IMG/VR virus record: IMGVR_UViG_3300031836_000398
Length of the DNA: 64,000 nt
Direction: 5' to 3' (one strand)
Origin: an uncultured virus (IMG/VR IMGVR_UViG_3300031836_000398)
Taxonomy: Duplodnaviria > Heunggongvirae > Uroviricota > Caudoviricetes > Herelleviridae
The first letter of the stretch is position 1. Every line of letters starts with the position of its first letter. The position numbers and the translations under genes are program-made. The notes beneath the pieces are model-generated. The model ran no database searches and was not told where the DNA came from. It saw only the letters and a program-made list of their open reading frames with translations. Shown here piece by piece: positions 38,341 through 62,252 of the stretch.

Positions 38341-38855
38341 GGGTTGACCTTTCGTGTGGGAGGACTGCGTTAGTGCCGAAAAGAGTTACGTTGAAGAATC
38401 AACGAATATGCTCGTTTAACAGGCAAATAACATGAGTAAGCATATGTTCAAGTTGCTATAGGTGCAACCCATTTGAGACAGGGCAACGCAAATTTGATCG
38501 TGCTCGACTGCGAGATTGCCTTGTTTATGAGGATTTTCAGATCAAGATCACCACAACTGGGGTGACGCTTTGTCTATACCTGCACAGCAGGGATAGACGT
38601 ATCTGGGTGCGTGATCTGCAATCACGCCCCCGAGCGCGCATCGCGCGCTGTGGGCACCAGGGCACACGAAGTGTGCCCAGTGGTGACCACCGTTGAGGTC
38701 GGTAGCTGACGCTCAACCAGTGGGTTTTTTGATGAAAGCCACTGAGCAGCTGCTCAGTCGAGGGAGATTGTGATGGGCAACCCATCACGCCGCTGAGTAC
38801 AGCCGCAGCTCAACCAGGAATTCACTTGGGTTGCTCGTGCAGGGAGAGTTGCACT

Positions 38856-39302
38856 TGTACCCTTTGTACCCTTTTTCATTTTCAAGAAAGGGTACAGCCC
38901 TGAAAGGCTCTACTTCCCTGCGATTGCAGGGATCTAAAGGGGTGTGTACCCTTTTTTCTAAATTAAATTTAAAAAAAAAGGGTACACACCAAACACGCCT
39001 CTCATCAGGCATTTCCGATGCTGTGCAGTGATTTGTACCCTTTGTACCCGCTAATTACAGGTTCATGTACATGTGCGCATGCGCATGCGCACACACGCAC
39101 AGAGACCGTTCAAAAAAACGGGTACAACGGGTACAGGGGTACCAAATGGGGTCGCTCGGCCAGCGTTCACGCGGGTTTTGGCTGTACCCAATCGCTAGAT
39201 CGGAATGGGTACACGTCGCGCCGAGCTCTGCTGCTCGTTGAAGAAAATGCAGGTCAGCGATGGTTTATGAGGGTGTACCCACTTTTAGCCAAAACGGGTA
39301 CA
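38856..39302. repeat. iteron array and candidate replication origin
   Basis: 13 perfect TGTACCC/GGGTACA copies in inverted pairs, with an AT-rich palindrome at 38941-38990. Confidence 0.75.
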
Positions 39303-39513
39303 CCCGGCTTCGGGCTCCCGAATTCGCTGATTAGCACGCCAATTCCACCGCTGTGCAGGGAATTGCGGCGTTGGAACGCCGTCTGCGGCTACTGCTGTGT
39401 GGCGTTCTGCGGCCTTTTCCCGTCGCGGAGACACATCGACCGAACGCGACGAGAAAGAAACGCCCAGAGGCCGTGGTGGCCTCTGGGCGTAGTGCGGTGC
39501 ATTGACCGCGTAG

Positions 39514-39681
39514 TTAGTAGTTGTAGCTGGGCGCAATCATGACGAGCGCGAGCAGCATTCCGGCCGTGATGACCGTCATGATGAGCAAGCTGACCAGGAT
39601 GATTGCGATAACGCTTCCGCGGCGGATGGCCATTACAAGCCATACGATCAGGAAGCCGCCGATGAACGGGACGAGTGCCAT
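39514..39681 (-). CDS. small two-TM membrane protein
   Basis: 55 aa, hydrophobic; AGG RBS. Confidence 0.55.
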   Translation of the reverse strand: MALVPFIGGFLIVWLVMAIRRGSVIAIILVSLLIMTVITAGMLLALVMIAPSYNY

Positions 39682-39847
39682 TGGGTGCCTACTTTCTGTA
39701 TTTGGCTGTGCAGGATGCACGGGCGTAGCGAATAAGTGTGTGGTGTTATTGGTGCGAAACAGTGGTTTCAGCTGATATTTCAGCAAATGTTGCTGTTTGG
39801 TGTTGCGCAGTAAATCCCGAATGGGGTATTGTATGTTCTACGCGTTA

Positions 39848-40199
39848 GTGATGCGGAGTGAGGGTTCTAAAACCTCGTAAGGCCGGAGAGTTCCTGTGGG
39901 AGGGAGCTTCTCCGGTCTTTTTGCGTCTCCCTGGCAGATTTGAATATGAGCTGTCGCAGCTTCGCTGCCGATGCAGTCAAGAAGTCCACGACAGCCCATT
40001 GCGGTAACCGCAGTCTCACTCAGTGAGGCTCGGGAGTCTTTGGCAGTTTCTGGTGACGCCTCGGGTTTCACCCAAGTCATCCCATCAGAACTGTTCATCC
40101 CCACCCCCGGTGACCTGCACCAGGTCACCAAGCCAGAGTGCCCATAACCGCTGTGCTGCTCGCGTAAGCGATTCAGCACTAGCAAACTCTGTAAAACAC
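39848..40199 (+). other. large multibranched folding element (ncRNA or ssDNA structure)
   Basis: Closing stem TGCGGAGT/ACTCTGTA and many internal hairpins with + strand G.T pairs. Confidence 0.55.
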
Positions 40200-40213
40200 C
40201 TTCTCGGACGAAG

Positions 40214-40960
40214 TCACGAGAAGTCCGTCTTTTTGCCGTAGAGCTGCGCCAGCAGCAGCCCGAATAGGGCTAGGCCCGCAATGACGAACGGTAGTGATGT
40301 CAGCGACGTAATTACGCTCGCCGGCATGGTCACCGAGAGTGCATTGAAAAGAGCGTGGGCCACGATCACACTCACAAGATTCTTGGTGCGCTCATAGATG
40401 GCCGCCAAGAGCAACCCCAGGGGAAGCGTGAGCACAATCTGCACGAGATTCATGTGCAGAAGCGCGAATATCAGCGCACTGAACAGTGCAGCCCAAATGG
40501 GCGCAACGTGGTTGCGCAGCTCGGCGTAGAGCAAGCCACGCATGAGCATCTCTTCGCCCACAGGTGCAAACATCAACACGAGCAGTAGCGTCAACGACGC
40601 CGGTGTCTCGGTGATTGCCTGGACCTGTGTATCAAAGCTGGGCGAACCGACGTAGCTGTAGAGCAGCGCGGCGGTCGTTTGAGCCACAAACCAGGTCGCG
40701 GGAACTGCCGCGAAAATCAGCAACCAGATCGTCGGGTTCGTTGTGGATGACGATCGCACTGGTGGACCTTGAGAAGTGACCCTCGAGCGGATCCAGATCA
40801 GACCCGCAACGAAAACTGTTGCGTTAGCCCAGAGGGCCCCCATCACCGCGGAATTGGTGATGGAGGCCACGATGAGGGTTGTTGCTAGGTAGAGCGCGAG
40901 CGCCCCACCCATGACCATGGCCGTAGCTAGTACTCGATGGTGAGATGTGGTTGTGGCCAT
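40214..40960 (-). CDS. CPBP (CAAX/Abi) intramembrane metalloprotease
   Basis: APVGEEMLMRG, FALLH and HALFN motifs; multiple TMs. Confidence 0.9.
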   Translation of the reverse strand: MATTTSHHRVLATAMVMGGALALYLATTLIVASITNSAVMGALWANATVFVAGLIWIRSRVTSQGPPVRSSSTTNPTIWLLIFAAVPATWFVAQTTAALLYSYVGSPSFDTQVQAITETPASLTLLLVLMFAPVGEEMLMRGLLYAELRNHVAPIWAALFSALIFALLHMNLVQIVLTLPLGLLLAAIYERTKNLVSVIVAHALFNALSVTMPASVITSLTSLPFVIAGLALFGLLLAQLYGKKTDFS

Positions 40961-40999
40961 GGTTGACCCTCCTTCTGGATTGTTGTTGTTGTGCGAGAC

Positions 41000-42841
41000 C
41001 TAAAGGGCGCGCACGACTGTTGCTTGGACTGAGCGGTGATCGCGGAAAACGTTGATCGAGAACTGGACGCGAAGGCGCAGCTCTCTTTCGCTGTGCATCA
41101 ACGACGCGGCGCGTTCCTTGAGTTCCATGAACTGATCGGCCGAGTTCCACCAGAGACACTTGAGTCCGCTTCGCGTGACGAGTCGGATGTGAGTCTTCTC
41201 ACTTCCCAGCAGACTGATGTGGCACTGGCTCAGATCAAGTACGAGCTCAAACTCAGGTCGCAGGAATCCCTGACCGAATGGCATGAGCCGTTCGATCTGC
41301 TCGGTCATCGTCAGAATGGCCTCGATGTCGCTTAGCGGCACATCGGAATCATCCGTTGGGCCGAATCGAAGATCGGGCGCGGTGATCTCAGCCATCTGAC
41401 CACTGGTTTCGAGGTCATCCAGCATCTGCTGAGAGGTTTCGCTCATCACTTTGTGGAAGCGAATGATCTCGTCGCCATTCTTGACGCGAATGCCACAGGC
41501 GTTCTCGTGACCGACGGCGGTAAAGCCGGCGGGTGTCATGGTTTCAATCACGCTGAACCAGAACGGAGAACGTGCTGAACCGGAGGTAGGTTCGTCGTCA
41601 GCATCGGGCGTGTGGAACACGACCGTGGGAACACCTGATCGCTGCATCAGGTGGTTGGCGATGAGTCCCAACATGCCTGCGGGGGCACCCGAAAGATACA
41701 CGTACGGTGCCAAGGGCTGATCGGTCTTTTCGAGTTCCTCGAGGTAGACCTTCAGCAGCTCCTTGCGCAACTCGTTGCCAGCAAGCACTCGCACCATGCG
41801 TTCGGTTTGTTCATCGGACGTAGGCGCCGTGAACACACCGAAACAATCAGCCATCGAGCCGTTGATTCGACGAGCGGCGTTGAACGCAGGGGCCAAGTAG
41901 AAGCCGTAGAAACCCTCGTTGATGTCGAGGATGCTGCGCAGTTTGCCTGCCCGGGTGTACTCGGCAAGAGCAACGCTCATTCCGCGGAACGCAGAGACGA
42001 ACACCGGGTGGTGTCCGCCATTGTTCAGCAGCGTCATCAGCGTGGTGCTGGTGACATCAATCTCGTCGTCAGGGTCTGCTGGGGGTGTGACGTAGAGCAG
42101 TCGAGCCAGTGAGAGGGAATCTCGCACGAGCTGGCGATTCTCGAACACCAGGGGCATGACGTCGGAGACGGTGCCGATACCCGCAAAGAGCTTCAGCATG
42201 TGGATGCTGTTGATCTGACGGGACTGGTAGCGCATCGTCCATGCTTCGATGACCTGGTAGAGCACATGGGCTCCGCAGATCCCAGTGTTGCGATACGTTT
42301 CGTCGATACGTGACGGGTCAACGGCAACGTCAGCGTTAGAGCCAGGCTCAAGCTCGACGTGGTGGTCGGTGACCAGGGTGATCATGCCCAGCTGGCGTGC
42401 TTGTTCGATGCCCTCGTGCGAGTTGACGCCACCATCGCAGGTGATGATTGCTTTGACATCGGGGTATTGCTGCTTGATCTCGATGATGTCTTCGACGGTG
42501 ACGTCGTGACCACGGTTGTAGTCAGGGACGTGCATGGCGACGTTGAAGCCGAGTTCGCTGAAGCCGGCATAGCCGAGCACACCGGACGTGATGCCATCCA
42601 TGTCGAAGTCGGGAACGATGACGATCAAGTCCTGGGACTCGTGAATGGTTTTGAGCTTTTCGAGCATCTCGTCCAGGCTCAAAAGCGTGTCGTGATCAAC
42701 GCTGTCGATGTGGGTGAGGAAGTCATCGCTCCAACCTCGGCGCTCACGAAGGAGCCCGAAGAGGTCAAGGGATTCTTCCCCGAAGGTGACTGGCAGAATG
42801 CCAGCCGGTGAAGCATGGGGAAGCTGTTGTAGCTTGCTCAT
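41000..42841 (-). CDS. RecJ-like DHH-family exonuclease/phosphoesterase
   Basis: PDFDMDG, TCDGG, TDHH, GTVSDVMPL, GSARS and GHENACG motifs. Confidence 0.88.
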   Translation of the reverse strand: MSKLQQLPHASPAGILPVTFGEESLDLFGLLRERRGWSDDFLTHIDSVDHDTLLSLDEMLEKLKTIHESQDLIVIVPDFDMDGITSGVLGYAGFSELGFNVAMHVPDYNRGHDVTVEDIIEIKQQYPDVKAIITCDGGVNSHEGIEQARQLGMITLVTDHHVELEPGSNADVAVDPSRIDETYRNTGICGAHVLYQVIEAWTMRYQSRQINSIHMLKLFAGIGTVSDVMPLVFENRQLVRDSLSLARLLYVTPPADPDDEIDVTSTTLMTLLNNGGHHPVFVSAFRGMSVALAEYTRAGKLRSILDINEGFYGFYLAPAFNAARRINGSMADCFGVFTAPTSDEQTERMVRVLAGNELRKELLKVYLEELEKTDQPLAPYVYLSGAPAGMLGLIANHLMQRSGVPTVVFHTPDADDEPTSGSARSPFWFSVIETMTPAGFTAVGHENACGIRVKNGDEIIRFHKVMSETSQQMLDDLETSGQMAEITAPDLRFGPTDDSDVPLSDIEAILTMTEQIERLMPFGQGFLRPEFELVLDLSQCHISLLGSEKTHIRLVTRSGLKCLWWNSADQFMELKERAASLMHSERELRLRVQFSINVFRDHRSVQATVVRAL

Positions 42842-42884
42842 AGGGTTCTCCTGTGTGTAGAGGTTGTGGGGGGAATGATGGTGT

Positions 42885-43424
42885 TCAGTCCCGCAGTTGG
42901 AGCATTGCTCGGACGTAGGTTTCGTCGGCTTGGCGACGAAGGCCCAGTTCGGGCGGCAGGATCATCAGGACGCCTTTTTGGGCTTCCTGAAGTTGGGGAA
43001 CAAGGATTGATGTGATGGTTCCCTCAGAGGCATCAATTCCGGCGCCACCGTCAAGGGCGGCCATAGGAATCAACACGATTCCGGCGTCGATGTTGACGAT
43101 GCTGTCTGGCTCGAAAGCAAGGGTTTCTTCGGCACCTTCGAGAAGCTCGTCGATGTCGAACTTGAACTCTGGTGAGCTCACCAGGGGTTCGGTGTCAAAG
43201 ACGCTGTAGCTGAAGTTGATCCAATTCAGATGCCGGGCAAGGGTTATACCTGCTTTGGTGGACAAGTCGAGGATTGCCTTCTCGAGCTTCTGTTCTTCGA
43301 TCAAGGCGTCGATGGTGTCTGTGATCAAGAACGGGCTCACGCGACCGTCAGCAAGAAAGACCGCTGTGCGGTTGCCTTCGATCGAGATCGGTTCCGATTC
43401 TTGTTCGGGTGTGGGGTCAGTCAT
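42885..43424 (-). CDS. hypothetical protein
   Basis: AGGAG RBS. Confidence 0.65.
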   Translation of the reverse strand: MTDPTPEQESEPISIEGNRTAVFLADGRVSPFLITDTIDALIEEQKLEKAILDLSTKAGITLARHLNWINFSYSVFDTEPLVSSPEFKFDIDELLEGAEETLAFEPDSIVNIDAGIVLIPMAALDGGAGIDASEGTITSILVPQLQEAQKGVLMILPPELGLRRQADETYVRAMLQLRD

Positions 43425-43520
43425 GGAGAACTCCTGTTCTGGTCTGGAAATGACACAGCACCCGCCCCTCTGATGAGGAAGACAGGTGCTGTGTCGGTGT
43501 TGTTTGCGAAACCCGGAGGG

Positions 43521-43964
43521 TTACTCGGCGAGGTAGGTGCCAATACGTGTGGTGTAGCTCACGATGAAGCAATGACCGGAGACGCCAATAATCTCGGCGG
43601 AAGAGTCGTGGCTGAGACCAAAGTCGAATGCGACCTCGTGGGCGTAGTCCTCGGGGGTGCGAGGGTCGTCAGTGTCGGATGCCGACGTGATGATCGAGTC
43701 AAAGAACCGGTCTTTGTCCAGCAGCACGATGACGGTGATGAAGCCCTGGCTGCCCATGAGTTCGCGAGCTTGGTTAGCCTTGATGGAGCGTGCCTGAGAG
43801 GCGTTTGTGAAAACGTCTTGGTTCGCCTCGCTCGATGGGACTGCAAATGCCCACGGGCTGTTGCCCAGCGAGATTTCGTTGAGCGTGCGCACACCGGGGG
43901 AGTCAAGAAGAAGTTCCCGAGAGGTGTCGCTGTCGAGGGCAAGGGTGATGAGGCTAGTTGTCAT
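43521..43964 (-). CDS. hypothetical protein
   Basis: 147 aa; C-terminal DFGLSHD...FIVSYTT resembles the next gene's GFGLAHD...FVIEYTT. Confidence 0.6.
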   Translation of the reverse strand: MTTSLITLALDSDTSRELLLDSPGVRTLNEISLGNSPWAFAVPSSEANQDVFTNASQARSIKANQARELMGSQGFITVIVLLDKDRFFDSIITSASDTDDPRTPEDYAHEVAFDFGLSHDSSAEIIGVSGHCFIVSYTTRIGTYLAE

Positions 43965-44216
43965 GGTGGGATGATCTCTCTGACTGAAGTTTGCTCTGTA
44001 GAGCGTGGGAAAATTTTGTGCCCCGAACGTGTGTCACACGTTACTCACACATGTATGAAGCCTACGGGTAAACGTTTAGGCCAGGTCCGGGCTCACCCGG
44101 ACCACCTGCGGTGGTCACATTGAAAACCGCGGAATTATCAACTTGTACTGAGAGAAAAGGCCCCACCTGTGGGGGTTCCACACATGGGGCCTTTTCGCCG
44201 CGAAGCGGTGTTGGAG

Positions 44217-44705
44217 CTAGTCGGTATCCATCGCAATGGCTTCGATCACGCTGGTGGTGTACTCGATAACGAAGTTGTCGCCATCGACGGCGACCACATT
44301 TGTTGCGTAATCGTGAGCAAGGCCAAAGCCGAGAACCTTCTCGTGGACGAAATCGCCGATCACGAAGTCGTCGTCCTGGTTCTCGATTGCAAGGAGGTAC
44401 TCGGTCTTGTCGATGTGAACGACGAAGGTTGCCCTACCGAGATCATCCATTAGCGGCTTAGCCTGGTCGATCGTGAGTGGGTAGTTCTGTGCCGTTGTCG
44501 GGGTTGGAACGACGTGCTTGCCGAGGACGACAGCGCCGTTCTCGACCTCGTGGTTTTCACCCTGGGCGATGTACCACTCAGCGAGACCAAGCTTGGTATC
44601 GCCATTGCTAACTTGGTACATCCAGTCAGCCACGGCGTCGCCGGGTACTTCGATCATGTCTCCGTTGGACAGGAATGCGGGCGCGGGTAGTTCAGTTTTT
44701 GCCAT
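44217..44705 (-). CDS. hypothetical protein
   Basis: AAGGAG RBS; DWMYQVSNGDT motif. Confidence 0.65.
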   Translation of the reverse strand: MAKTELPAPAFLSNGDMIEVPGDAVADWMYQVSNGDTKLGLAEWYIAQGENHEVENGAVVLGKHVVPTPTTAQNYPLTIDQAKPLMDDLGRATFVVHIDKTEYLLAIENQDDDFVIGDFVHEKVLGFGLAHDYATNVVAVDGDNFVIEYTTSVIEAIAMDTD

Positions 44706-44722
44706 GGTTGGCTCCTTGTGGA

Positions 44723-46024
44723 TTAGACGCCCTTGGATGTACCGGCGTCGGCGAATTGCTCGATAGAGCAGTCGGCGGCAGCCTTGTCCTCGCGTCGACG
44801 AACGATGCGAGGTTGGAACATCCGTGGGTGTTCGGGATTGATGACGTAGAGGAAAGTAACGACCCAGACGTCGCCAATGCTGACGTCGCCTTTGCCGATC
44901 GTGGAAGCAGCTCCGACCTCAACGAGGTCGCCGTCTGCGGTGTAGACAGACAGCGTGGCTGACTGCTTTGTGCCGTGGAGGGCTGTAACGATCACGTCAG
45001 CGTCTTTGATGAACTTGTGCTTGATGAGCGTCGTCGAACGCCTCCCAGGCTCATAGAGACCCGCTGAGAGCCGCAGGATGATGCCTTCACGCTGATCTTT
45101 GATCGCGGTAGCGAGGAAATCAGCCTTTTGCTCCAGGGTTGATGCCACTGGCGCGAGAACTACCGCTTCAGGGACATCTGGCCGTGCGTGAGGGATACCG
45201 AGCACAGCTGAGAGCAGTGAAAGCACTTGGTAACGCTGGGTGAACGAGGTGTCCTCGTGAACCCAGACGTGGTTGCCATCACTTGCGGCTGCAATGTCGA
45301 AAAGCACGAGAGTGCGTCCGACAACTTCGCCGTCGAAAACCCAGCGACCGCTGTGCAGTGCCGTGAATGGCAGAAGGTGGTCACGACCGACGTTGCGGGT
45401 TTTCTCCTGCCCCTGGCGGTTCAGAACGCGGATCTCTCCGTTGCTGACTTCAATGACCACTCAATCACCGTCGTACTTGTACTGGGCAACCCACTGCTCG
45501 TCGAGCATGGTGTTGTCGACTGTGGTTTCAGGCTGCACAGAAGCCAACATTGGGCGGGGGGAGAGCTCAGGAGTCAGATCAACCGATCGAGGCGTGATGC
45601 TCGGAAGCGGTGACAGGGCTGTGCTGGCGACGATGGTTATGTTGCTTGCTTTGTCGGGGCCCAAGTCAACAGCGTTGATTGGCTCCGCGGTGATTGCCAC
45701 GGATTGTCCCTGGGGCAGAGATTGCGCGAGCGCGTCGAGGATCTCGAGAGTGTCCTCGGTGATTTCGGTCAGCGCTGTGGTTGAGACAGTGCCTGAACTG
45801 GTCGGGTTGTAACCCTTCTTGACCTTGGCGTCGAGCTTCGCGGTGGCGGCCTTCAGAGCAGCATCTGCCGAGGCAGCTTGCGTCGGCTTTGTGAACGTGC
45901 CGATCGTGCCGTTGCGGCCGTACTGGGTAACCCAGGCTGAGGCAACAACAAAAATTCGGTAGAACTTGTCGGTGTTGCTGCGGTCGTCGATGTACTCGGC
46001 ATGGTGAATTATGACGGTTTGCAT
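44723..46024 (-). pseudogene. WGR-domain ATP-dependent DNA ligase split by an in-frame TGA
   Basis: WGR-like DKFY...YGRNG; motif I KYDGD*; then FDGE, LFD, EGIIL, KHK and RxREDK in the same frame. Confidence 0.85.
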
Positions 46025-46067
46025 GGTTGTACCTCTTCTGAAATGTTAGATCGACCCCCGGATTTCT

Positions 46068-49822: not shown

Positions 49823-51639
49823 GAGTTTCTCCCTTGTTTCGAGTTCGGAATCTCAAAGCGATCCGAAGGTTCGCGATGATTCAGATTTACTCCCGCGTCA
49901 GCGTCAGCTGACCGTGCCTGTGGATAACCACAGACACTCTCGGAGGTGCATTGCTCCGAGCAAACAGACGCAGCAACATCGTTGCGGGTACGCGTCTGAT
50001 TTCTCGCTCCGTAAGGCCGACAGGCCGCGACGGGTGGAACTGGAGTCAGCGCTGCAAGCGATGGCTCCAGAGGGCACCCCACGACGCGCCAGCGTTGGTG
50101 GGGCAAGGGAGCGAAGCGAGCGCAGTAACACCCCGGAGCGAAGCGATGGGTGACTGAGCGCAGCGAGGGAACGGTGTCGGCTGTGCCGACCGACGGACGT
50201 AGTCCGGCGTCACCGGGGCTTATGCCCTTTCTCTCTTTTCGTCGCATCTGTAGCGTTAGCGGAAGATCGGCGGTAAATCCGTTGCATTTGCTGGGCAAAG
50301 TGGTTACATCATGGTGCCTACATCAATACTCTTTTTGCCTACAACGTGTTGTAGGCGTGATGGAGGTGCCGCCACTTTGCTCGCATTGAAGGCTCTGTGG
50401 TGTTGTAAGGTTTTTGCGGCGCTTGACGCCGCTACAACACGATGATGCGCAGCATCGCTGAGGTGGATACAACGTGTTGTAGACGCCGTTCCAGAGCCTT
50501 CGCAGGCGACGCAGTCGCCGTGTTGTATCTGCTTACCAACGGGGGAGCGAAGGTGGCGTCTGAGGAACGAAGACGGTGCCGTAGCGTGTGAGCTCTGTGA
50601 TGGCTGTTGGGCATTCTCGAGGCAACAGCTGCACCTCTACTGTTCGCGTCAGCGAACGCCGGCGTTGCCTCTTGGCGCCAGCGCAGTTGGCACTGCTTCG
50701 CGGCGACAGCCGCGGTGACCCTTAGCCAGCGAAGCTGATCTTTCCACAGCAGTTTCCACATCCCCACCAGCTGCTCGTGCAACGAGCCCCCATCGTCGTT
50801 TCACTGACACACAGGCCCGGGGCGACGTCACCTGTAGGAGCGTCGTAACACCGTGTTTCAGTGTGCGAACTTGTTCGTGCGCTGAGGGCGTTTTCTGCCC
50901 TGGGTCTGGGCTGCATCCACCATCGTGCAACAGCATCATTCCCGTCTGGCTCCACCGCAAAGGTGGTGGCGGGCGGAGGCCCTACTGGCTTGATTTGCGG
51001 AAGTTGTGGAGCTGGAAACCCGGGTGCTTTTGCCGGGGGTCAGCTCCACAACTTGGTTGTGCCAATGTATCGCTTGTCACCACCGCCGCAGCCACACACT
51101 GTGCTGCGATCACGGCACCAAAATCGCACCGAAAAAGGTAAAAAAAAGGCAACCCGAAGGTTGCATTCTGCAGCAAAAGCTGCTCCGATTCAGGCTCAAA
51201 CAGGGCCCGCTTCTGGCCAGAAAGAGACCACGAGTGACCAGAAAAAGACCAATTCCGGGGCGCATCTGGAACAAAATGCCCGAAAACACCGTTTTGGGGC
51301 TATCTCGGCGATAAGCGCCCATTCTCGGCCCATAGTGCGCCCGTTGTCGGAACAGTTCTGTTCCGGCTACAGCCCAGTAATGGGCGGGATATTCAGCAGC
51401 CCATTTCAAGCCCAAAAGAGACCCGTTTTGCATCCATTACTGGAACATAAAACGCCCGGTAATGGTCAGGGACTTTTCAGGCCCGTTTCTGGCTCATAAC
51501 TGGAACAATCTTGTTCCACTGTTGGGCGTGATGGAACACCTGGTCAGGGATCGCGAATAGCGAGCACAGGAGAGCGCAGCAGCCCACTTTGCGCCCGTTT
51601 CTGGTTCAAGGTTGGGCTTTGCTGTCTTTGCCGCAGTGG

Positions 51640-53426: not shown

Positions 53427-53436
53427 CGCTTACGCA

Positions 53437-54283: not shown

Positions 54284-54433
54284 GATCGACCTACCTAGCT
54301 TTCGTGTTCTTTTGTTTGCTGGGTTCGGGAAGAAACCCGAGACCAGCGCGTAGAAGAAAAAAAGGGGCTGTCTGCTCAGCGTCAAAGGAGACACAGAGCA
54401 GACAGCCCGAGGGGGTGGTTTGGGTACAGCTCG

Positions 54434-54814
54434 TTAGAACGCGATGCGTTCGCCGCGAACGAGCTGAGATTCGGGGATCGACAGGTCGTATCCACCAACG
54501 ACGTAGGTCCGCATATCGCTGGCGATGACAATGCACTTCCAGTAACCGTCGTTGCGGCGACGGCGGATGCCATCGGCTGCGAAGTGACCTGATACGCAGT
54601 GCTCGACAGGTACAACGGTCAGCGAGCGACCTTCGTCGTCGGGCATCTGGATCTTGACCACGAGACCGTGGAGATCCTCGCGAATTGTGACCGGCATAGC
54701 CGAGAGGTCGTGGTTGAGCGAGCCAAGCGGGCTCCGAACCAGGCGAGCGGTTTCTTCGGCTTCAGTCTCGATGAGCGAGTCGAAGATGTTGGAGGTTTGT
54801 GTTGCAGCAGACAT
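54434..54814 (-). CDS. hypothetical protein, paralog of 53492..53869
   Basis: AAAGGA RBS; shared motifs. Confidence 0.75.
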   Translation of the reverse strand: MSAATQTSNIFDSLIETEAEETARLVRSPLGSLNHDLSAMPVTIREDLHGLVVKIQMPDDEGRSLTVVPVEHCVSGHFAADGIRRRRNDGYWKCIVIASDMRTYVVGGYDLSIPESQLVRGERIAF

Positions 54815-54891
54815 GGCAGATTTCCTTTGTTTGAGTAGCGGGATTGCCGCTGTTGTTGTTGCTGTGGATGAAGACAGTGAAGACAGTGATG

Positions 54892-54973
54892 TAGTCCCTC
54901 TCTCGGGAGTCAAACCCGAGACCTTCTGTTTCTTGCGAAGAAGACAGATGCTCAGCCATCGAGCTCAGAGGGT
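54892..54973 (-). ncRNA. tRNA-like element with an extended anticodon arm
   Basis: Acceptor CCCTCT/AGAGGG; D-arm GCTC..TGG..GAGC; T-arm TCGGG-TTTGACT-CCCGA; 14 nt in place of the 7-nt anticodon loop. Confidence 0.65.
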
Positions 54974-55271
54974 TGCGTGATCGCGCTGCCCAGGGGTGGG
55001 CAGTAGCGGCACACGGTGATCAGTCATGCGTGCGATTACGCAGTCGTGCTGGTGACGTGTCACGAGCAGGAGCAGGAGCAGTTGTGGGGCCAGGAGTGCA
55101 ACTCCTGGTTCGGCTGCTCAGCCACACGTAGCACTGATATTGGTGATGGTGGAAGACACCACCAAGATCAGCACTACCGCTTTGGGCCTAAGTTCTGTTT
55201 AGCGTCGCCCAAACGACGGTGAGTTCCCTTGTGATCACGCTCAATCCCGAATCGCCTTTGGCGATTGCTTG

Positions 55272-55772
55272 TTATCTGCGCGTCTGGTGAACCCATCCGG
55301 GTACAACCACAGTGGGAATATCAAGGGAGCGCCACAGCGCAGTCACGATCGGATTGTCGTCGATCGCCAAGACGGGGTCGAAGCCCAGGCGCCGTGCTCG
55401 GATGAACAGCTCGCGCTTGACGTCGTCGTCGCGACGAGTGTCGAGATCAGCTCTCATGCCCAGGGCCTCGAAAGGCACGTTGTGCTTGCGGAGCCAGACC
55501 TTGGTTCTGTATCGCCATTGCTCTTTGCGTGAGGTCAGGATCAACACAGCGAAGCCATGAGCGTGCAGCGCTTGTACGAGCTCGACAACGCCGGGCATCG
55601 GATCTGCGTACGACGACGCAGCGTGGAACGCAGTGAAGTCCTTGTGGCCTCGCGGCTTCAGGACGTAGTGCCTGATGCGCGAGACATCGACGAGCGTGCC
55701 ATCGACATCGACGATGATGGTGGGTCGTGTTGCTGTTGCTGTTGCTGTTGCTGTTGGTGTTGGTGCGGGCAT
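55272..55772 (-). CDS. HAD-family phosphatase (polynucleotide kinase 3'-phosphatase-like)
   Basis: DVDGT, LTSR, MR..D.R.D..VK and IDD motifs; N-terminal TA repeat. Confidence 0.85.
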   Translation of the reverse strand: MPAPTPTATATATATRPTIIVDVDGTLVDVSRIRHYVLKPRGHKDFTAFHAASSYADPMPGVVELVQALHAHGFAVLILTSRKEQWRYRTKVWLRKHNVPFEALGMRADLDTRRDDDVKRELFIRARRLGFDPVLAIDDNPIVTALWRSLDIPTVVVPGWVHQTRR

Positions 55773-55852
55773 TCAAGGCACCTCCGTTCGGGGTTGTGTC
55801 ATACGCAGCGAGAAACAACAACGGCGCAGGATTACCTGCGCCGTCGCGTGTC

Positions 55853-56122
55853 TTATTGGTTGTCTGGGCGGAACTCAGCGATCGTGCCCTGGTAGGAGCA
55901 CGCTGCCCATCCGCGTGCAAAGCACTGGATGGGATCTTGGTCGCGTAGACCCTCTTCGGGATCCACCGGCTTGGCCTCAAAGAGGTCATCGCTGGGCTGC
56001 GAGCCCATGACGTCAAGTCCGGTGTCTTCCATGACGACGTTGAGCGTCATCTGGAGAGCGAAGCGCTGTGTTTGCAGGCACTCCGGGCAACGGATGTCTT
56101 TGAGCTTCTCTTGGTTTGGCAT
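55853..56122 (-). CDS. small Cys-motif protein
   Basis: L..IRCPEC...IQC...CSYQG. Confidence 0.6.
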   Translation of the reverse strand: MPNQEKLKDIRCPECLQTQRFALQMTLNVVMEDTGLDVMGSQPSDDLFEAKPVDPEEGLRDQDPIQCFARGWAACSYQGTIAEFRPDNQ

Positions 56123-56323
56123 GGTGTTGCGCCTTCCATCGGCAGTATTTGATTGTGAGACAGCGAATGGCCCCGGCTTCGCGGTGAACCTCTGTCAACG
56201 AATCTCCCGGCGTGGCTCTGCCACGAGCGCGCTGGCCACCAGGCAGCAGGCGCAAAAAAAGAAAAGCCCCCAGTCCGTAAGGACCAGAGGCTTTTCGTGT
56301 TAATCAGATTCGGCGTGAACTAT

Positions 56324-56458
56324 TTAGCAGCCAGGCGACGCTGACGATCGCGACGAACTTTGTCGCAGTGAGACACACGCCAGCAAAGCGGTGACAGCGA
56401 AGAAGGCAAGGATGCTGCCGATCTCGCTGATGGTCTGGTTGAACATTTCAGGAGACAT
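56324..56458 (-). CDS. 44-aa single-TM peptide
   Basis: ATG just after the upstream stop; hydrophobic core. Confidence 0.35.
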   Translation of the reverse strand: MSPEMFNQTISEIGSILAFFAVTALLACVSLRQSSSRSSASPGC

Positions 56459-56461
56459 TGG

Positions 56462-56959
56462 TTACGCCTTCCAGCCGCAGTCTTCGCTGTTGAGGCAGCG
56501 AATGTGCTTGGCTTCGTTCTGCACAACGCCGATCGGGTTGATGCCACAGTTCGGGCAACCTTTACCGGTAAGCATCAGGATCTGGTCGTTGTCGACGATG
56601 CGCTGGCCAGGGAACCAGCCAGTGACGCGGATGCGGTGGCCGAAGACGCCGGTGAGCGTGTTGTGGATGGTGTTGGTGATGTCGAGCAGTTCGTCATCAG
56701 CTTCGGGCACTTCCTCGACAGCGTCGTGGATTTGCTTGGCGATCTCTTCGTGCGATGCACGAGATGCGTCACCCGACGGGCAGACGACGTCGAACGCAGT
56801 CATGACCCAAACAACGCTGTCAGCGACAGAGTGGTTCTGGTATTCGTTGATGACGAGGTTGGCCAGGAACGCCGACAGCGCAACAGTGCTGATGGGGTGG
56901 CTTGCATCCCGGTGAATCAGGGTGCGAACGTTGTTGCGAGTTTGTGTGGTCGAGCTCAT
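56462..56959 (-). CDS. hypothetical protein with C-terminal zinc ribbon
   Basis: GGAG RBS; CPNCG...CLNSEDCGW. Confidence 0.65.
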   Translation of the reverse strand: MSSTTQTRNNVRTLIHRDASHPISTVALSAFLANLVINEYQNHSVADSVVWVMTAFDVVCPSGDASRASHEEIAKQIHDAVEEVPEADDELLDITNTIHNTLTGVFGHRIRVTGWFPGQRIVDNDQILMLTGKGCPNCGINPIGVVQNEAKHIRCLNSEDCGWKA

Positions 56960-57162
56960 GGGATTACTCCGGTCTTCTAGTTAGTAAAAGTTCCGAGAAA
57001 ATCCCGAATAGCCTCTGGCTATTGGATAGCTGTGTGCTGCTGCAGGCAGCAAAAAAAGGAACCTCTCCGGATGAGATCCGGAGAGGTTCCTACAAGCTGT
57101 CTTCTTGGTTAGCGGGTGACCTCGACAGCGACGAAGAGATCTTCTATCTCGACCCGCCTGGG

Positions 57163-57561
57163 TTAGAACGGCACAACGATGTCCAGCTCGCGAGAGGCAG
57201 CGGCAACATCCCAGCCAGCCTTGCTCTGGCTTTCGATCAGTGTCACGAAACCTTCGACGGTGCCGTTGGCAAGAACCGTAGCCAGATCAGATGCTTCATC
57301 GACGTACTCGGTGACAACATCGTTGATGAACATTTCGTGCCAGACGTGATCGTCTCCGCAGGGGAAGCTGGGCCGGTTCCGGTCAAGATGCGGCTGACTC
57401 AGCTGCGTGGGGATGAAGTAGAGGCTCTCGTCGAGAGCCACCCTGATGCGATCCTTTTGTGCCTGGGTAATCGCACCCTTGAGGAAGATGTCGCCGTTGG
57501 CCTTCCAGTTGGCAGCATCCCGGTACATGACCGGGATCGTCGTGATGGGCACAGTAGCCAT
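57163..57561 (-). CDS. hypothetical phage/plasmid protein
   Basis: YRDAANWK, YFIP.Q and DDHVWHE motifs. Confidence 0.7.
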   Translation of the reverse strand: MATVPITTIPVMYRDAANWKANGDIFLKGAITQAQKDRIRVALDESLYFIPTQLSQPHLDRNRPSFPCGDDHVWHEMFINDVVTEYVDEASDLATVLANGTVEGFVTLIESQSKAGWDVAAASRELDIVVPF

Positions 57562-57563
57562 GG

Positions 57564-57782
57564 CTATTTCTCTTTTCTCTTGTTGACGCGCTGGGATTCT
57601 TTGTGTTCGCGCGCTGCTTGCTGTGCATGCTGCAGCGCTGTTCCGGGGGTGTCTGGGTTGGGCCACGCCCAAACGATCCAGTTGCAACGCTCTGCTTCGC
57701 ATTGCAGTCGCACATGACCCGGCGCCACAGGGCGGCGAAGCCAGGAGCGCATGCGCTTCATGGTGTGGTCAGTCATGGCCAT
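57564..57782 (-). CDS. small C2H-type zinc-binding protein
   Basis: CEAERC...AREH; coupled to neighbours. Confidence 0.5.
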   Translation of the reverse strand: MAMTDHTMKRMRSWLRRPVAPGHVRLQCEAERCNWIVWAWPNPDTPGTALQHAQQAAREHKESQRVNKRKEK

Positions 57783-57784
57783 GG

Positions 57785-58219
57785 TTACTTCGCTTTCTTT
57801 GCGGGCTCGTTGAGCAGGAAGATGGTGTGCTGAGCAAAGAGGTCAGCCTCTTCGCACAGGTCGCGTACGTCGCTACCGATGCTGCCGATTACGGGAATCA
57901 GCGTGAACTCATCCACGCGGTAGTCGCTGTCGATGACAACGACCAGGGTGCTGCCGTGGCCGTTGGGGGCGGGAAGCTGGATCTGCGTGTCAGCAACGTG
58001 CGCTCCACGGATGCTGTAGAAAGCGTTGACAACGGTTTCGTTGCTGGGCATCGCAGCCATGACATCGGGCGTAGTCAATACCGCTGTGATCGCAGCGCGA
58101 GCATCGCTGTATTCGCTGGCGCGAACCACGACGTCTTCGCCGGTGTTGTAGCCGCGGCGCAGAGCACTGCTGATGCACACGACGTCCTGAAGCAGGGTGG
58201 TGGATTCTAAAGTAGACAT
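57785..58219 (-). CDS. hypothetical protein
   Basis: AAGGGG RBS; 144 aa. Confidence 0.65.
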   Translation of the reverse strand: MSTLESTTLLQDVVCISSALRRGYNTGEDVVVRASEYSDARAAITAVLTTPDVMAAMPSNETVVNAFYSIRGAHVADTQIQLPAPNGHGSTLVVVIDSDYRVDEFTLIPVIGSIGSDVRDLCEEADLFAQHTIFLLNEPAKKAK

Positions 58220-58465
58220 GCTTTACCCCCTTCAGGGCGATGATGAATGAGTAAGTGGTCAACAGCGACCGGATGTTCGTTGTTCACGGCTACACCCGGG
58301 CCGCCGCTGGCGGCCAAGCGTGTGAGCGTGAAAAAGAAGCCCCAGAGGATTGATTCCTCTGGGGCATTCACGGTGAGACTCATCTCGGATCGGAGACATC
58401 TCTCCCGGCCGCGAAGCGGCGTGACCGGACATTACCGCCGTGCGCGATAAATCTGTGGTGATTTG

Positions 58466-58538
58466 CTCCCCGACCTGGACTCGAACCAGGAACCTACGCA
58501 TTAACAGTGCGTTGCTCTGCCAATTGAGCTATCGAGGA
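58466..58538 (-). tRNA. tRNA-Asn(GTT), CCA not encoded
   Basis: TCCTCGATAGCTCAATTGGCAGAGCAACGCACTGTTAATGCGTAGGTTCCTGGTTCGAGTCCAGGTCGGGGAG forms a full cloverleaf. Confidence 0.95.
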
Positions 58539-58587
58539 TTGGCGATGGAAGATGAGAGCCCGCTCCACGTCCAGTGGTGAGTGTGCG

Positions 58588-58651
58588 TGCAGCACACGAG
58601 AGGATTGAACTCTCAGCGGGAATTTCACGAAGCGCTTCCGTGCTCGTGCTG
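58588..58651 (-). pseudogene. degenerate tRNA-like element (acceptor stem plus T-arm)
   Basis: CAGCACG/TGTGCTG stem and GAGAG-TTCAATC-CTCTC T-arm; no normal D or anticodon arms. Confidence 0.45.
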
Positions 58652-58659
58652 GCCGGTAG

Positions 58660-58774
58660 ACCAGCACTCCGGACTCGAACCGGACTTCGTGAGTATGGGA
58701 AAAGGATGACTTGGGGAGCCTTTCACTCCAGCCTCCGGGGTATGAGCCCCGGCGTTCTTCTCGACCTATGTTGC
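58660..58774 (-). pseudogene. tRNA-Met(CAT)-like element with a ~45-nt variable-region insertion
   Basis: CCGGGG-CTCATA-CCCCGG-AGG anticodon arm and TCCGG-TTCGAGT-CCGGA T-arm; imperfect acceptor stem. Confidence 0.55.
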
Positions 58775-58989
58775 GTGCAAGCAACAGTGAGGTTCGGCCA
58801 CATCGTTTCCGGCGAGTTTGCACGCTCGTCCTTCTGCGATGTAGTTGAACTACCGCGTCAAATCCCATCCCGATCACAGCTTTGCTGGGATCCACGCCCC
58901 TTTGTGGTTAGTGACGGGTGATTGTGGGTGACAACAACGGGCCCAGTCACCGTGATGGTGACCAGGCCCGCTGTGTTGTCTTGCCGGGC

Positions 58990-59688
58990 TTACTTGACCC
59001 AGTCGTCGAGAGCGTCGTCGAAGTACGCCACGCGACGGAAGTCCGGCGCTTGCTGGTTGATCAGCGGGTCGGCTACAGTGCGGTCAGTCTCGTACTGGGT
59101 GTGCTTTCTCTTGTTGCCAAGACTAGGCGCATCGGTGAACACGATGGTGTGACCCATCTGCGATGGATCATTCTCGCGAGGCCACACGGACAGTGAGACT
59201 CGGGTCGAGAGGTGTTGGCGTGGCTTGCCTGTGTAACTCCAGTTGAGAGCATCGAACTCGAGCTTGCGCAGCATCTGCAGCGGCATCCCGGTGTCAGATT
59301 TGGCGAGGAAGCGTTTCAGAGCGTCGTACCCGCAGAGATCCAACGAGTACGCGGCATTCCAACCGTTGCGTAGCCCGGTGGCGAATATCTCGAGTGTTTC
59401 CTCGATCGGTTCGTGTTGCGCTGTTTGATCGCGCAGGCGCTCAGGTAACTGGAAGTCAGCGTTGTCAGCTTCGAGCTGCCAGCTGAGCATCGTTGCCCCA
59501 GTGTCGGGCAGACCCTCGGCGTTGATGTACCGAATCCATACAACCCACTCGATCGGCATTCCGTCGATGGAACCAACCCCGACGCTGACGTGGGCAGCAC
59601 CGGCGCGAATTGCTTGGATGGCTGTGGTGATGATCTGTTCTGGGATCGCCCGTGAAGCATCGGTGGACATATCTGTATGTTCGCTCAC
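58990..59688 (-). CDS. hypothetical protein
   Basis: GAGG RBS; ~230 aa. Confidence 0.6.
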   Translation of the reverse strand: MSEHTDMSTDASRAIPEQIITTAIQAIRAGAAHVSVGVGSIDGMPIEWVVWIRYINAEGLPDTGATMLSWQLEADNADFQLPERLRDQTAQHEPIEETLEIFATGLRNGWNAAYSLDLCGYDALKRFLAKSDTGMPLQMLRKLEFDALNWSYTGKPRQHLSTRVSLSVWPRENDPSQMGHTIVFTDAPSLGNKRKHTQYETDRTVADPLINQQAPDFRRVAYFDDALDDWVK

Positions 59689-59738
59689 GGGGAGCCTCGT
59701 TTCTTGTAGGAAGTAAAGAATGAATGGTGGGGTGAGTC

Positions 59739-59777
59739 GCCGGCGGCCGGCCACCAATTTGGTGGCCGGCCGCCGGC
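59739..59777. terminator. long perfect GC-rich hairpin
   Basis: GCCGGCGGCCGGCCACCAA-T-TTGGTGGCCGGCCGCCGGC downstream of the SLOG gene. Confidence 0.55.
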
Positions 59778-59791
59778 TAGAGGGTTAGCCC

Positions 59792-60349
59792 TTAGAGTCC
59801 GAGCTCAGAAAGCGGAAGACCGCCTTGATTGTCGAGGCTGATATTGCGTTGCTGTGTTGTGTGCTGCATCAGCGCGATACCGGCGTCGCCGAAAGGGAAC
59901 ACACGTCGGCCCCAGATCACGAAGGTCGGAACTCCGGCCTTGCTTGCTTCTGCCACGCAGTGCCACGTTCCGCGCGAGCTCTCCTTCCGGTCTTGACCGG
60001 GGGCGAGTGCTTGCGGATGCGTGGGGAACGCCAGGCACAGATCAACGTTGCTGTTGATCATGCGCGTGTTGCGATGGAAGCCTGCCAGCTTGCAGCGGTC
60101 ACCCTTCTTGTCCCAGTCGGGGCAAGAGTCGCTGTGTTGATTCCACTGGGCTGGATGTGGCTCGGTGGGCATTCCCAGCAGCATTGCTTCACCAGCGAGC
60201 ATCAGGTCAGCACCACGAGCAGCGCCATGGATCAACGTGGTCGTGGGAGCTTGCGTGTCCAGCAGCAACATGCCTGCCTTCAACGCAGCCGACGCCAGCT
60301 CGGTGTTGTTCCAACCACGGCTACCAGTCATCAGGATGCGGGCGCTCAT
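59792..60349 (-). CDS. SLOG-superfamily protein (DUF2493/YspA-like)
   Basis: ILMTGSR.W, IHGAARGAD, AG..RN..M, LAF and SRGT motifs. Confidence 0.85.
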   Translation of the reverse strand: MSARILMTGSRGWNNTELASAALKAGMLLLDTQAPTTTLIHGAARGADLMLAGEAMLLGMPTEPHPAQWNQHSDSCPDWDKKGDRCKLAGFHRNTRMINSNVDLCLAFPTHPQALAPGQDRKESSRGTWHCVAEASKAGVPTFVIWGRRVFPFGDAGIALMQHTTQQRNISLDNQGGLPLSELGL

Positions 60350-61011
60350 GAACGAACCCCGTCACTGATCGAGGCGTCTTCGTGCCAGTCCAGCTCAGGC
60401 GCTTGACCCATCGGAGAGCTGTCCTCCAGGCAGCGCAGCACCAGACGTTGCTCACGAGCTTCGTAGAGAGATTCACGAATGTCCTCCATAGCTCGGTGAG
60501 CAACACAAGAGCTAGGCGCCACGGTGGGAATCAGCACGGGTGCCCAGCGGGCTAGTGCTTCACGAATACCCGAGATGTCGATGAGACGGTAGTGGAGCAC
60601 TGCGGCTACCAGCGGCATCTGAGCTTCGATGAAGTTCAGATCGAGACGCACGCTGGAACCAATGATGATGCCGCGGGTATCTATGGACGGATGAGCTTCA
60701 ACACCAACACCGTGCTGGATGAGCCACTGCGATGCGTCGAAGTCCACGGTCGCCAGGGAGACGGTCGAGTTCTTGACTTCTTCGAGCAGACCCGAGCGGG
60801 TGTGCATGTTGGTGACGTACTCGTTCATTCGCTCAAGCTGAGCTGGCTCAGCGTGGATGACGCGGCTACCGAATTCGGCGATGACGTCGAGGTTGTCATC
60901 AACCAACAACATGGCGAACTCGAGAATGGTGTCCTTGACGGGATCGAGACCGGTGGTCTCCAGGTCAATGGGCACGCCCAGACCGAGAGGTGTGGAGGTG
61001 GGTGCAGACAT
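60346..61011 (-). CDS. orn: oligoribonuclease (DEDDh)
   Basis: IDLETTGLD, MHTRSGL, LHYRLIDIS and HRAMEDIRES motifs. Confidence 0.9.
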   Translation of the reverse strand: MSAPTSTPLGLGVPIDLETTGLDPVKDTILEFAMLLVDDNLDVIAEFGSRVIHAEPAQLERMNEYVTNMHTRSGLLEEVKNSTVSLATVDFDASQWLIQHGVGVEAHPSIDTRGIIIGSSVRLDLNFIEAQMPLVAAVLHYRLIDISGIREALARWAPVLIPTVAPSSCVAHRAMEDIRESLYEAREQRLVLRCLEDSSPMGQAPELDWHEDASISDGVRS

Positions 61012-61127
61012 GTGGGCCTTCTTTCAATAGATGAGATGCAGAGATGCAGAGATGCAGAAAAAGAGGCCGTGGGCTGAAGTGATTCACTTCTAGCGCACGG
61101 CCTCGGTAGACCCAGAGGGTCAAAGAT

Positions 61128-61247
61128 TTAGATGATGGTGACGCGACCGTTGGAGTAACGCAGCATGTAGCGTCCACCAGCGGTAATTGTGACGTTGACC
61201 ATTTCGCCGGTCTTGGTGCGGTGTAGTCCGGGTGCCATTGTCACCAC
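61128..61247 (-). CDS. 39-aa microprotein (not in ORF track)
   Basis: GAAGGG RBS; MVTMAPGLHRTKTGEMVNVTITAGGRYMLRYSNGRVTII. Confidence 0.45.
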   Translation of the reverse strand: MVTMAPGLHRTKTGEMVNVTITAGGRYMLRYSNGRVTII

Positions 61248-61423
61248 GTCCCTTCTCTTTGCTGATCGTCAGCGGATTTTGATACAAGGCGTTTCCTCGT
61301 CACAGAGAATCCCGAGACAGCTCTGCTGGCTTCGTGTTCTTTCCGCACTTCAGCTTTTGCTGTTCACGTCTGGGCTGGAAGCCGGGGCGACTCCGGCCCA
61401 GACGTTCAGGAACCTGCGGTTTA

Positions 61424-61774
61424 TCAGGGCACGCGCTGCACAGGTGTCAGGAGTAGTTCGAGTGACTCGCGCATGTTTGCCAACTCGATCTTGAGTGTCG
61501 CAATCTCGATGTCGCGTGGGTCAGCTACCCCAGCACTTGCTTGCTGCGAGCCTGTGCGAGTGATGCGATCAACAGCGCCGTACTTTGCAGCCTCTTCGAG
61601 GATGAGCAGGCGCACTGATGGTGATGGCGAGACTTGCGCGTCCCACCATTCGAGACTGACGTGATCGTCTTCCGGAATTAGCAGGCGTTTACGTCCGGGG
61701 GTCGCTTGCGATGCTGCCGACGCTGTGACGTCGATGTTGATACGAGCAGTGATGTTGGTTCGTGTTGAACTCAT
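61424..61774 (-). CDS. RHH-like DNA-binding protein, paralog of 62253..62678
   Basis: EWWDAQ...SVRLLI.E...G.VD.I.R. Confidence 0.6.
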   Translation of the reverse strand: MSSTRTNITARINIDVTASAASQATPGRKRLLIPEDDHVSLEWWDAQVSPSPSVRLLILEEAAKYGAVDRITRTGSQQASAGVADPRDIEIATLKIELANMRESLELLLTPVQRVP

Positions 61775-62252
61775 TGATTTGTCCTTTGTGGGAGGGATGT
61801 TGAGAAGCCGGGGCTTTCTCCTGGTTCTGTGTGGCGACTAACTCCGGGTGCAGGAATCACCAAACAGAGAGTCCTGCCACACCCGATCCCGCTCTGCGGG
61901 ATCACCACAGTGGCGCAGATGTGCGCAACAACCCCTGCCCCACCCATCGTTGCCTCATCGAGCTCGTGTTGCGGGCGGCAACGCATCCCTGAGGCCACGA
62001 ATCTGCGCAATCCGCAGAAGTGGCCCTTTCCTGCCCGTTAGCAGACCGGAACGCGCCCAGACATGGGCGGTGTTGCCGGGTTCGCTGCACTTTTACTGCT
62101 CCCTGACCAGAAGTGGAACAAAAGAATCCCAAGATTGACCAAGATTGGGTCGCAACTGGCGCGTTATGTACATAATGTCGGGATATGCTTAGAAACGAGT
62201 AGAAAACACTCGGTAAGTACTTATATAATACTGATCACAGAAAGGATGCGTC

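Follow-up and report, generated by a model that had tools for sequence, protein, structure and literature searches.

A conserved folded motif in a D5/SF3-helicase plasmid, a candidate single-strand initiation signal within a mixture of structured intergenic blocks

Six intergenic blocks in a 64,000-nucleotide stretch of DNA recorded as an uncultured virus (IMG/VR IMGVR_UViG_3300031836_000398; the whole stretch is called the window here) fold into dense arrays of hairpins, which raises the question of whether they form one class of signals acting as single-stranded DNA (ssDNA). The window most likely belongs to a large plasmid of actinobacteria that encodes a PolB-like polymerase, an AEP-like primase and a D5/SF3 helicase of its own. 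A previous sequence-only reading had taken the blocks, numbered here 1 to 6 from left to right, as a distributed set of + strand promoters or priming sites. Our analysis moderately favors another answer, namely, that the six blocks are a mixture and that block 3 is a single-strand initiation signal, folded + strand DNA beside an origin of a D5/SF3-helicase replicon.

Block 3 is kept by compensatory change

The core of block 3 (Table 1) is a multibranched structure with a plan conserved among its homologs. The 5' part consists of AGGGCA, hairpins, GCAGTAAG and further hairpins, while the 3' part has a 5-bp helix stacked on the 6-bp hairpin with the GC-TNT-GC tip, a variable hairpin, a 2-nt bulge within a three-way junction, and TTATGC(C/T)CTT. 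The structure also includes a GCAGTAA junction. Searches gave 21 loci in the first pass and 34 sequences after iteration, the window included. Pairing was scored in 23 distinct sequences, which are what remained of 29 (picked by six Watson-Crick pairs in the tip hairpin) after the removal of near-duplicates. In this set, 96.6% of 298 cells were paired, and double changes were found in 11 of the 13 pairs, with 55 double-change cells versus only 2 one-sided G·U cells among the 288 paired. None of 500 shuffles reached the covariation score, and slid controls were 28 to 54% paired. The closing stem covaries as well, with GAGCA upstream in 7/7 elements that have a TGCTC tail (GGGCA in 1/7) and GGGCA upstream in 16/18 of those with a TGCCC tail. 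The covariation check proposed along with the sequence-only reading came out positive for block 3, which would represent an unusually clear natural ssDNA structure under purifying selection.

The motif is also strand specific. Across the 23 elements, GCGNAGC was found 36 times on the motif strand and twice on the opposite one, with ca. 3 expected per strand. DNA mini-hairpins of the d(GCGNAGC) type are exceptionally stable, and the near absence of G·U pairs together with the GA-flanked GNA tips favors DNA over RNA. A structured noncoding RNA or RNA cis-element, for instance a primer or copy-control RNA, would agree with the multibranched covarying structure and with a tail ending in a pyrimidine run, weakly flagged by a terminator scan. 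However, the scarcity of G·U cells, the GA-GCGNAGC-GA tips typical of DNA mini-hairpins, the variable orientation to neighboring genes and the lack of any Rfam match to the motif, for the window's copy as well as at six homolog loci, make an RNA unlikely.

Within the window the motif is single copy, the covariance model giving 61.5 bits at block 3 and 16.8 bits at the next best site. Distant blastn of block 3 and two homolog copies against plasmids or phages gave chance matches or none. The motif was not found in the literature searched, which did not extend to supplements and subscription papers, and supplementary lists of structured motifs could hold it. We regard it as an apparently undescribed ssDNA motif of SF3-helicase replicons, with a predicted function.

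Table 1 Positions of the structured blocks, repeat clusters and replication genes in the window
Feature	Coordinates	Strand	Basis or detail
Block 3 core, multibranched ssDNA-like motif	50071..50231	+	Comparative structure, covariation
Block 3 closing stem, AGGGCA/TGCCCT	50071-50076 (AGGGCA)	+	Closing-stem covariation
Block 3 GA-flanked GCGNAGC mini-hairpins	50111, 50138, 50158	+	
Block 3 6-bp hairpin, invariant GC-TNT-GC tip	50176-50190	+	
Block 3 tail, TTATGCCCTTT	50220-50230	+	
Iteron-like cluster directly 3' of block 3 motif	50290..50590		GTTGTA/TACAAC 7 times, direct and inverted
Iteron-like cluster upstream of D5 gene	38830..39310		GGGTAC 14 times, AT-rich core
Third repeat cluster	51250..51620		GGAACA 7 times
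Block 1, hairpin array left of 38.8 kb cluster	38548..38830	+	Folding, comparison with L011 and L012
Block 2, putative structured leader, covarying stems	39848..40199	-	Comparison with L011 and L012
Candidate antisense RNA, ca. 85 nt	39803..39922	+	Promoter-like site, hairpin, T run
Block 4, weakly structured (z about -2)	50598..50938	Undecided	Folding
Pistol ribozyme inside block 5	55123..55218	-	Rfam RF02679
Block 6, structured 5' region of 116-aa ParR-like gene	61785..62131		Minus strand folds lower
D5/P4-type SF3 helicase gene	36541..38340	-	D5_N, DUF5906 and Pox_D5 domains
PolB-like DNA polymerase gene, 1102 aa	32743..36051	-	PHROG 1252, E 3e-21
AEP/Prim-Pol-like primase gene	22916..23884	-	Atlas lead alone, no Pfam hit

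The motif is associated with SF3 helicase genes

Among 2.9 million viral contigs, a pattern scan picked out 37 loci, of which 9 without helices were dropped and 28 were structured (a first, too strict pattern had given 0 matches). DUF5906/SF3 helicases were present on the contigs of 27 of the 28, and 25 lay on contigs already retrieved by D5 alignment. Further structured matches came with a D5 gene (L202), with PolB and a VapE/DUF5906 helicase (L208), or on a 71%-complete fragment that had no helicase hit (L207). Since 18 of the 28 belong to one plasmid group, the set amounts to ca. 10 independent lineages, 10/10 with a helicase. Samples of 151, 151, 72 and 151 genomes added two strong matches (G005 and G1012), found without using the helicase, with a DUF5906 gene on the same contig at ca. 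1.3 kb and 9 kb, respectively. In G1012, a GGGTAC cluster, the same repeat as at 38.8 kb of the window, lies 3' of the motif. Weak matches in G821 and G865 (24 bits) were treated as false, as neither came with a DUF5906 gene. When 150 candidates per genome were scored in 15 D5-positive genomes, 4 had the motif; no match to it came from the D5 loci of streptococcal and lactococcal phages. As a side observation, G005 contains a minimal integrated element (G005:C2:1052000-1057500; L274 and L275) made up of a tyrosine integrase, a helix-turn-helix gene, a primase-less D5 helicase, the motif and GGGCCC repeats.

Among the carriers are conjugative plasmids, phages that have genes for terminase, capsid or lysis, and small elements that combine an integrase with a D5 helicase. 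Some are low in GC (29 to 46%), which suggests hosts among the Bacillota. The large plasmids have AEP and PolB, and the motif was present in 3/3 PolB-positive genomes, the 11 motif-negative genomes being devoid of both PolB and AEP. The idea that the motif primarily tracks PolB was dropped because G005, G379, G788 and G793 to G796 have the motif without a PolB or AEP match.

This range of carriers bears on whether block 3 could be an origin of transfer (oriT) or relaxase-binding site, serving also satellites mobilized in trans. Its single copy, invariant short core and flanking inverted repeats are what an oriT would display, and several carriers encode MobL. However, the phages L130, L132, L202, L204 and L208, which have genes for terminase, capsid or lysis, also carry the motif, MobL was not found in G005 or G379 (the genome-wide search being for this relaxase family), the mobL gene is 69 kb (pGKT2) and 84 kb (G148:C6) away from the motif, and there is no match to the pLS20 nick context. 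An oriT is quite improbable.

Repeat clusters beside the motif

Directly 3' of block 3 is an iteron-like cluster, and the pattern extends to other carriers: a repeat cluster is found ≤330 nt downstream of the motif in 11 of 25 elements, the window included (p≤0.05). In several carriers (L117/L217, L132 and G005) the motif itself is directly 3' of the D5 gene. A second iteron-like cluster, upstream of the window's D5 gene, is conserved in position in L011, L012 and G148:C6 and is a putative helicase-loading origin. No mapped origin was found in the literature searched for this plasmid family, the relatives of pGKT2. The GGAACA cluster, the third in the window, is similar in form to those of GGGTAC and TACAAC.

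Likeness to known initiation elements

Origins of the P4 and Staphylococcus aureus pathogenicity island (SaPI) type have iterons bound by a D5-type Rep helicase. The window resembles them in that short repeats, direct and inverted, are clustered near a gene for a D5-type helicase, and differs in its conserved folded motif, a putative priming signal of which no counterpart beside such origins was found in the literature searched.

With the single-strand origins (sso) of rolling-circle plasmids (ssoA, ssoU and ssoW), block 3 has in common that it is orientation-specific folded ssDNA of ca. 160 nt. Its core TATGCCGA and its tail TTATGCC match part of the RS_B of sso's (7-8/15 nt), which may be a lead to host RNA polymerase. 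The letters of RS_B and CS-6 were taken from passages of PMC6395029 and PMC4598088, and the role of RS_B was taken from passages of PMC8860593 and PMC5703833. In contrast to an sso, block 3 has these letters in a hairpin tip and closing stem with the rest of RS_B missing, and it is multibranched with a three-way junction. CS-6-like TAGCGA tips occur in some homologs (L024 and L053) and are absent from the window's copy. Moreover, the carriers encode D5/SF3 helicases, and no rolling-circle Rep was seen among the open reading frames (ORFs) scanned, which cover part of each element. Two homologs (L217 and L213) have extra TATGCCG copies just downstream of the motif, nearer to RS_B than the tail. 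The idea that the origins of streptococcal phages are linked to the minus origins of plasmids was discarded, having no support in the literature search or in streptococcal D5 loci.

Another parallel is the origin of the Sulfolobus plasmid pRN1, where, according to the parts of PMC3869888 consulted, an essential stem-loop region with a primase motif in its loop lies 3' of the gene for Orf904, a primase-polymerase and SF3 helicase. The likeness, drawn by description and not by sequence comparison, is with the carriers whose motif is directly 3' of the D5 gene; pRN1 differs in being archaeal, with a fused enzyme and one long stem-loop. By replicon type block 3 is not an sso, but it would operate in the manner of an sso or of the stem-loop of pRN1.

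Proposed role of block 3

Given its compensatory conservation, its strand specificity, its single copy, its association with SF3 helicase genes and its frequent position 5' of a short-repeat cluster, we infer that block 3 is best read as an sso-like signal beside a P4/SaPI-type origin, and neither Frpo nor oriT. SF3 helicases move 3' to 5'. The helicase would load at the repeat cluster and, moving in this direction, uncover the + strand leftwards; the exposed strand would then fold into the block 3 structure. A priming enzyme could bind the invariant GC-TNT-GC hairpin and the TTATGC(C/T)C stem and make one primer, from which synthesis would proceed leftwards, in the same direction as the backbone genes. 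Host RNA polymerase or a primosome, or the helicase itself, is the likelier reader of the signal. The element's own AEP, put forward in the sequence-only reading, is a serious but somewhat less likely candidate: it is possible and not required, several motif carriers having no AEP match.

Some observations weigh against this interpretation. More than half of the elements (14/25) have no significant downstream repeat cluster, and in the plasmids the motif is 5 to 23 kb from the helicase gene, with a second cluster adjoining that gene, so that either could be the origin. The match to RS_B is only 7-8 nt long. Eleven of the 15 D5-positive genomes gave no motif match with 150 candidates per genome scored, and among 100 additional loci, most of them D5 loci with ≤10 kb of flanking sequence, no match was better than E 0.089. 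As for the structure, selection for six pairs inflates pairing in the tip hairpin helix (a looser filter also gave six tip-hairpin pairs in 23/23), and the structure string was drawn from the same sequences as those scored. Finally, few G·U pairs and GNA tips, while favoring DNA, are compatible with RNA.

An ssDNA structure might also have another replication role, such as loading or activating the helicase, arresting the fork, or serving as a second-strand origin that strand displacement from the 38.8 kb origin would expose late. The motif is tied more tightly to the helicase than to any primase, and in the window it is 11 to 12 kb from the D5-adjacent cluster, both of which would suit such roles; the RS_B-like letters point instead to priming, and we consider these roles improbable. 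A broader version of the initiation-signal reading is rather doubtful: block 3 might be the first representative of a hitherto undescribed class of folded ssDNA elements for initiation, maintained through compensatory change in high- and low-GC hosts, common to phages, small integrated elements and conjugative plasmids of 100 to 250 kb, and read by a self-contained replisome of PolB, AEP and SF3 helicase, with the two or three structure-plus-iteron units of the plasmid acting as separate strand origins.

How D5/P4-type replicons without a fused primase begin DNA synthesis is unsettled, and the motif bears on that question. It is a candidate of defined length (160 nt), in which invariant positions could be mutated and which a covariance model can find, and it offers a possible route to a host-independent replicon for actinobacteria.

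The six blocks do not form one class

The blocks have no sequence in common with each other, and for that reason each was analyzed separately. In folding tests against 30 dinucleotide shuffles per block, both strands folded better than the shuffles (z-scores of -1.9 to -8.1), if weakly for block 4, and all six blocks are intergenic, as described in the sequence-only reading. For the + and - strands, in this order, the values were -7.6/-4.7 with RNA parameters and -8.0/-6.1 with DNA parameters in block 1, -8.1/-7.3 and -4.9/-5.1 in block 2, -3.3/-2.8 and -6.0/-3.4 in block 3, -2.3/-1.9 and -2.2/-1.9 in block 4, -4.8/-5.5 and -3.7/-5.6 in block 5, and -4.1/-3.3 and -4.6/-3.9 in block 6. Strong local folding is frequent window-wide, with z<-3 in 13% of 799 windows of 120 nt.

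The strand asymmetries that had suggested a common + strand signal mostly did not hold. A count free of energy models, of 1×1 non-Watson-Crick positions inside helices, gave 14 G·T and 14 A·C across the six blocks (10.3 and 10.1 in shuffles), contrary to a general + strand wobble bias. High-probability G·U pairs numbered 33 on the + versus 21 on the - strand with RNA parameters, as the sequence-only reading would have it, and 2 versus 7 with DNA parameters. GNA triloops are on the + strand in blocks 1, 3, 4 and 5 (6 in total), but the 2 in block 2 are on the - strand and block 6 has none; window-wide, GNA-triloop hairpins of ≥4 pairs already number 56 on the + versus 32 on the - strand. A strand switch at a 39 kb origin was not found either. 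With a 4-pair threshold, the +/- counts of GNA hairpins were 29/16 to the left of 39 kb and 25/13 to the right (10/10 and 11/5 with 5 pairs, 3/6 and 4/2 with 6 pairs), and GC skew was +0.107 on the left and +0.090 on the right, flipping only at 62.2 kb along with gene direction.

It is very unlikely that the whole set of blocks consists of + strand ssDNA promoters or priming sites of the Frpo/ssi kind, on the transferred strand or the lagging template. In support of this reading, every block folds, the + strand has 6 of the blocks' 8 GNA hairpins, RNA-parameter G·U pairs lean the same way, the relatives are MobL conjugative plasmids, and Frpo-like elements are common in leading regions according to the portion of PMC11541004 consulted. 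The blocks resemble Frpo and the ssi of ColIb-P9 in size range, folding and conjugative plasmid context. However, no block has the paired -35/-10 arrangement of an Frpo-type promoter; in a hexamer scan of minimum free energy structures with the sigma-70 consensus, the sole -10-like matches outside block 2 were unpaired. Besides, the blocks are not repeats of one another, and block 3 is also found in phages. The copies of the block 3 motif in two relatives are on the strand that codes for MobL and the type IV secretion system (T4SS), which by analogy with pLS20 would not be the transferred one. EGeRS1 of the pLS20-family MOBL plasmids likewise consists of long GC-rich multibranched intergenic elements, of unknown mechanism, which the authors, in the sections consulted of PMC8708921, judge unlikely to be ssDNA promoters; it differs in being repeated copies of one sequence, placed upstream of establishment operons, while the six blocks are mutually unrelated. 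The reading as a + strand ssDNA structure next to an origin-like repeat cluster stands for block 3 on strong comparative evidence, and plausibly for block 1. As a general account it fails because the block 5 ribozyme would act only as minus-strand RNA and because the wobbles of block 2 are on the minus strand, while its + strand has a conserved pair of putative promoter and terminator.

A pistol ribozyme, a probable leader and three further blocks

The Rfam search proposed with the sequence-only reading, which left block 3 without a match, revealed in block 5 a pistol ribozyme that this reading had overlooked (43.6 bits versus a gathering score of 34.5, E 1.2e-4). P1 (55218-55203) and the 6-bp loop-loop pseudoknot are both perfect. 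P3 (55177-55128) is long and contains minus-strand G·U pairs, and the AAA linker and a G-U linker (55127-55126) are present. P2 is short, AAC with GUG giving two Watson-Crick pairs and an A·G mismatch. The pistol of Gordonia phage GMA7 (44.1 bits) has the same long-P3 form and order of parts, but its P2 has three pairs. The block 5 pistol works, if at all, as sense-strand (minus) RNA. Directly upstream is a PNKP-type phosphatase gene (55272-55772, -); that its product acts on the pistol cleavage ends is speculation.

Homologs of block 2 were found only in L011 and L012, near-identical to each other, where a 102-aa ORF splits its halves (L012:138-446). Two wobbles read G·U on the minus strand, and the loop CCCAC and an upstream GUGGG, a possible pseudoknot, are both kept. 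On the + strand, a promoter-like TTGCGC-N18-TATTGT (39803-39832; a 7/12 site read by eye and missed by the promoter scan) is followed by a G·U-containing hairpin (39881-39917) and then by a T run; L011 has the same layout. Consensus folding is lower on the + (-73.9) than on the - strand (-61.3). Tentatively, from two independent sequences, block 2 is probably a structured minus-strand leader under antisense-RNA control. A search of viral contigs with the block 2 pattern gave 11 loci, all chance on inspection.

Block 1 keeps a 24-nt core (38627-38650) at the same place in L011 and L012, with a position-equivalent cGNAg hairpin on the + strand at its site in both, and its + strand folds lower than the - strand in all three sequences. 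Its place to the left of the 38.8 kb cluster mirrors that of block 3 relative to the 50.3 kb cluster, and it may be a second ssDNA signal with the same job for the 38.8 kb cluster, a weaker candidate than block 3.

Blocks 4 and 6 had no homolog among 169 loci, long contigs or the larger locus set. For block 6, comparison with 5 and 301 genomes gave only chance matches of 23 to 53 nt, the best inside an ABC transporter gene. Divergent ParR-like paralogs (61424-61774, -, and 62253-62678, +) flank block 6 and the flip of gene direction and GC skew. Nearby, a 36-aa ORF (61238-61128) has a conserved structured 5' motif (61128-61340, -), kept in G148:C6 and G197 and without an Rfam match.

The replicon and its replication genes

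Most likely, the replicon is a large conjugative plasmid of the MobL type that encodes a replisome of its own; judging from relatives, its transfer genes would be outside the window. Every backbone gene is on the minus strand, from 1 to 62 kb, and the products include DprA, SSB, UvrD, SNF2, MgsA, the D5-type helicase, RecJ and a ligase domain, as well as WhiB, a sigma factor, the PNKP-type phosphatase, an exonuclease and ParM. The closest named relatives of the D5 helicase are Arthrobacter proteins (ca. 70% identical), and no primase domain was detected in it. The polymerase matches a family of phage DNA polymerases (PHROG 1252) and has no Pfam match and none in a PDB sequence search; its atlas neighbors include PolB clusters, with PF00136 on 56% of members. 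For the stretch 38-62.5 kb, megablast found no match among plasmids, and distant blastn of 38.4-40.2 kb against plasmids or phages gave chance matches or none. The nearest complete plasmid is Gordonia pGKT2, which shares this backbone, on one strand, and has mobL and T4SS genes on the opposite strand. The sequence runs that contain the window's DNA are mostly brine metagenomes; no RNA run is listed among them, which carries no information on expression.

Plasmid-borne replisomes of this kind (AEP-like, PolB-like and SF3 helicase with SSB, RecJ and ligase) are also present in gut elements of 97 to 250 kb and in some phages. The window has a tRNA-Asn(GTT) at 58465-58538 (-), and a DUF7507 surface-protein gene with its leader is tandemly duplicated (3157-6257 and 6040-8934, 77 to 89% identical). 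pGKT2 carries a DUF3800-IV RNA (L005:48038-48126).

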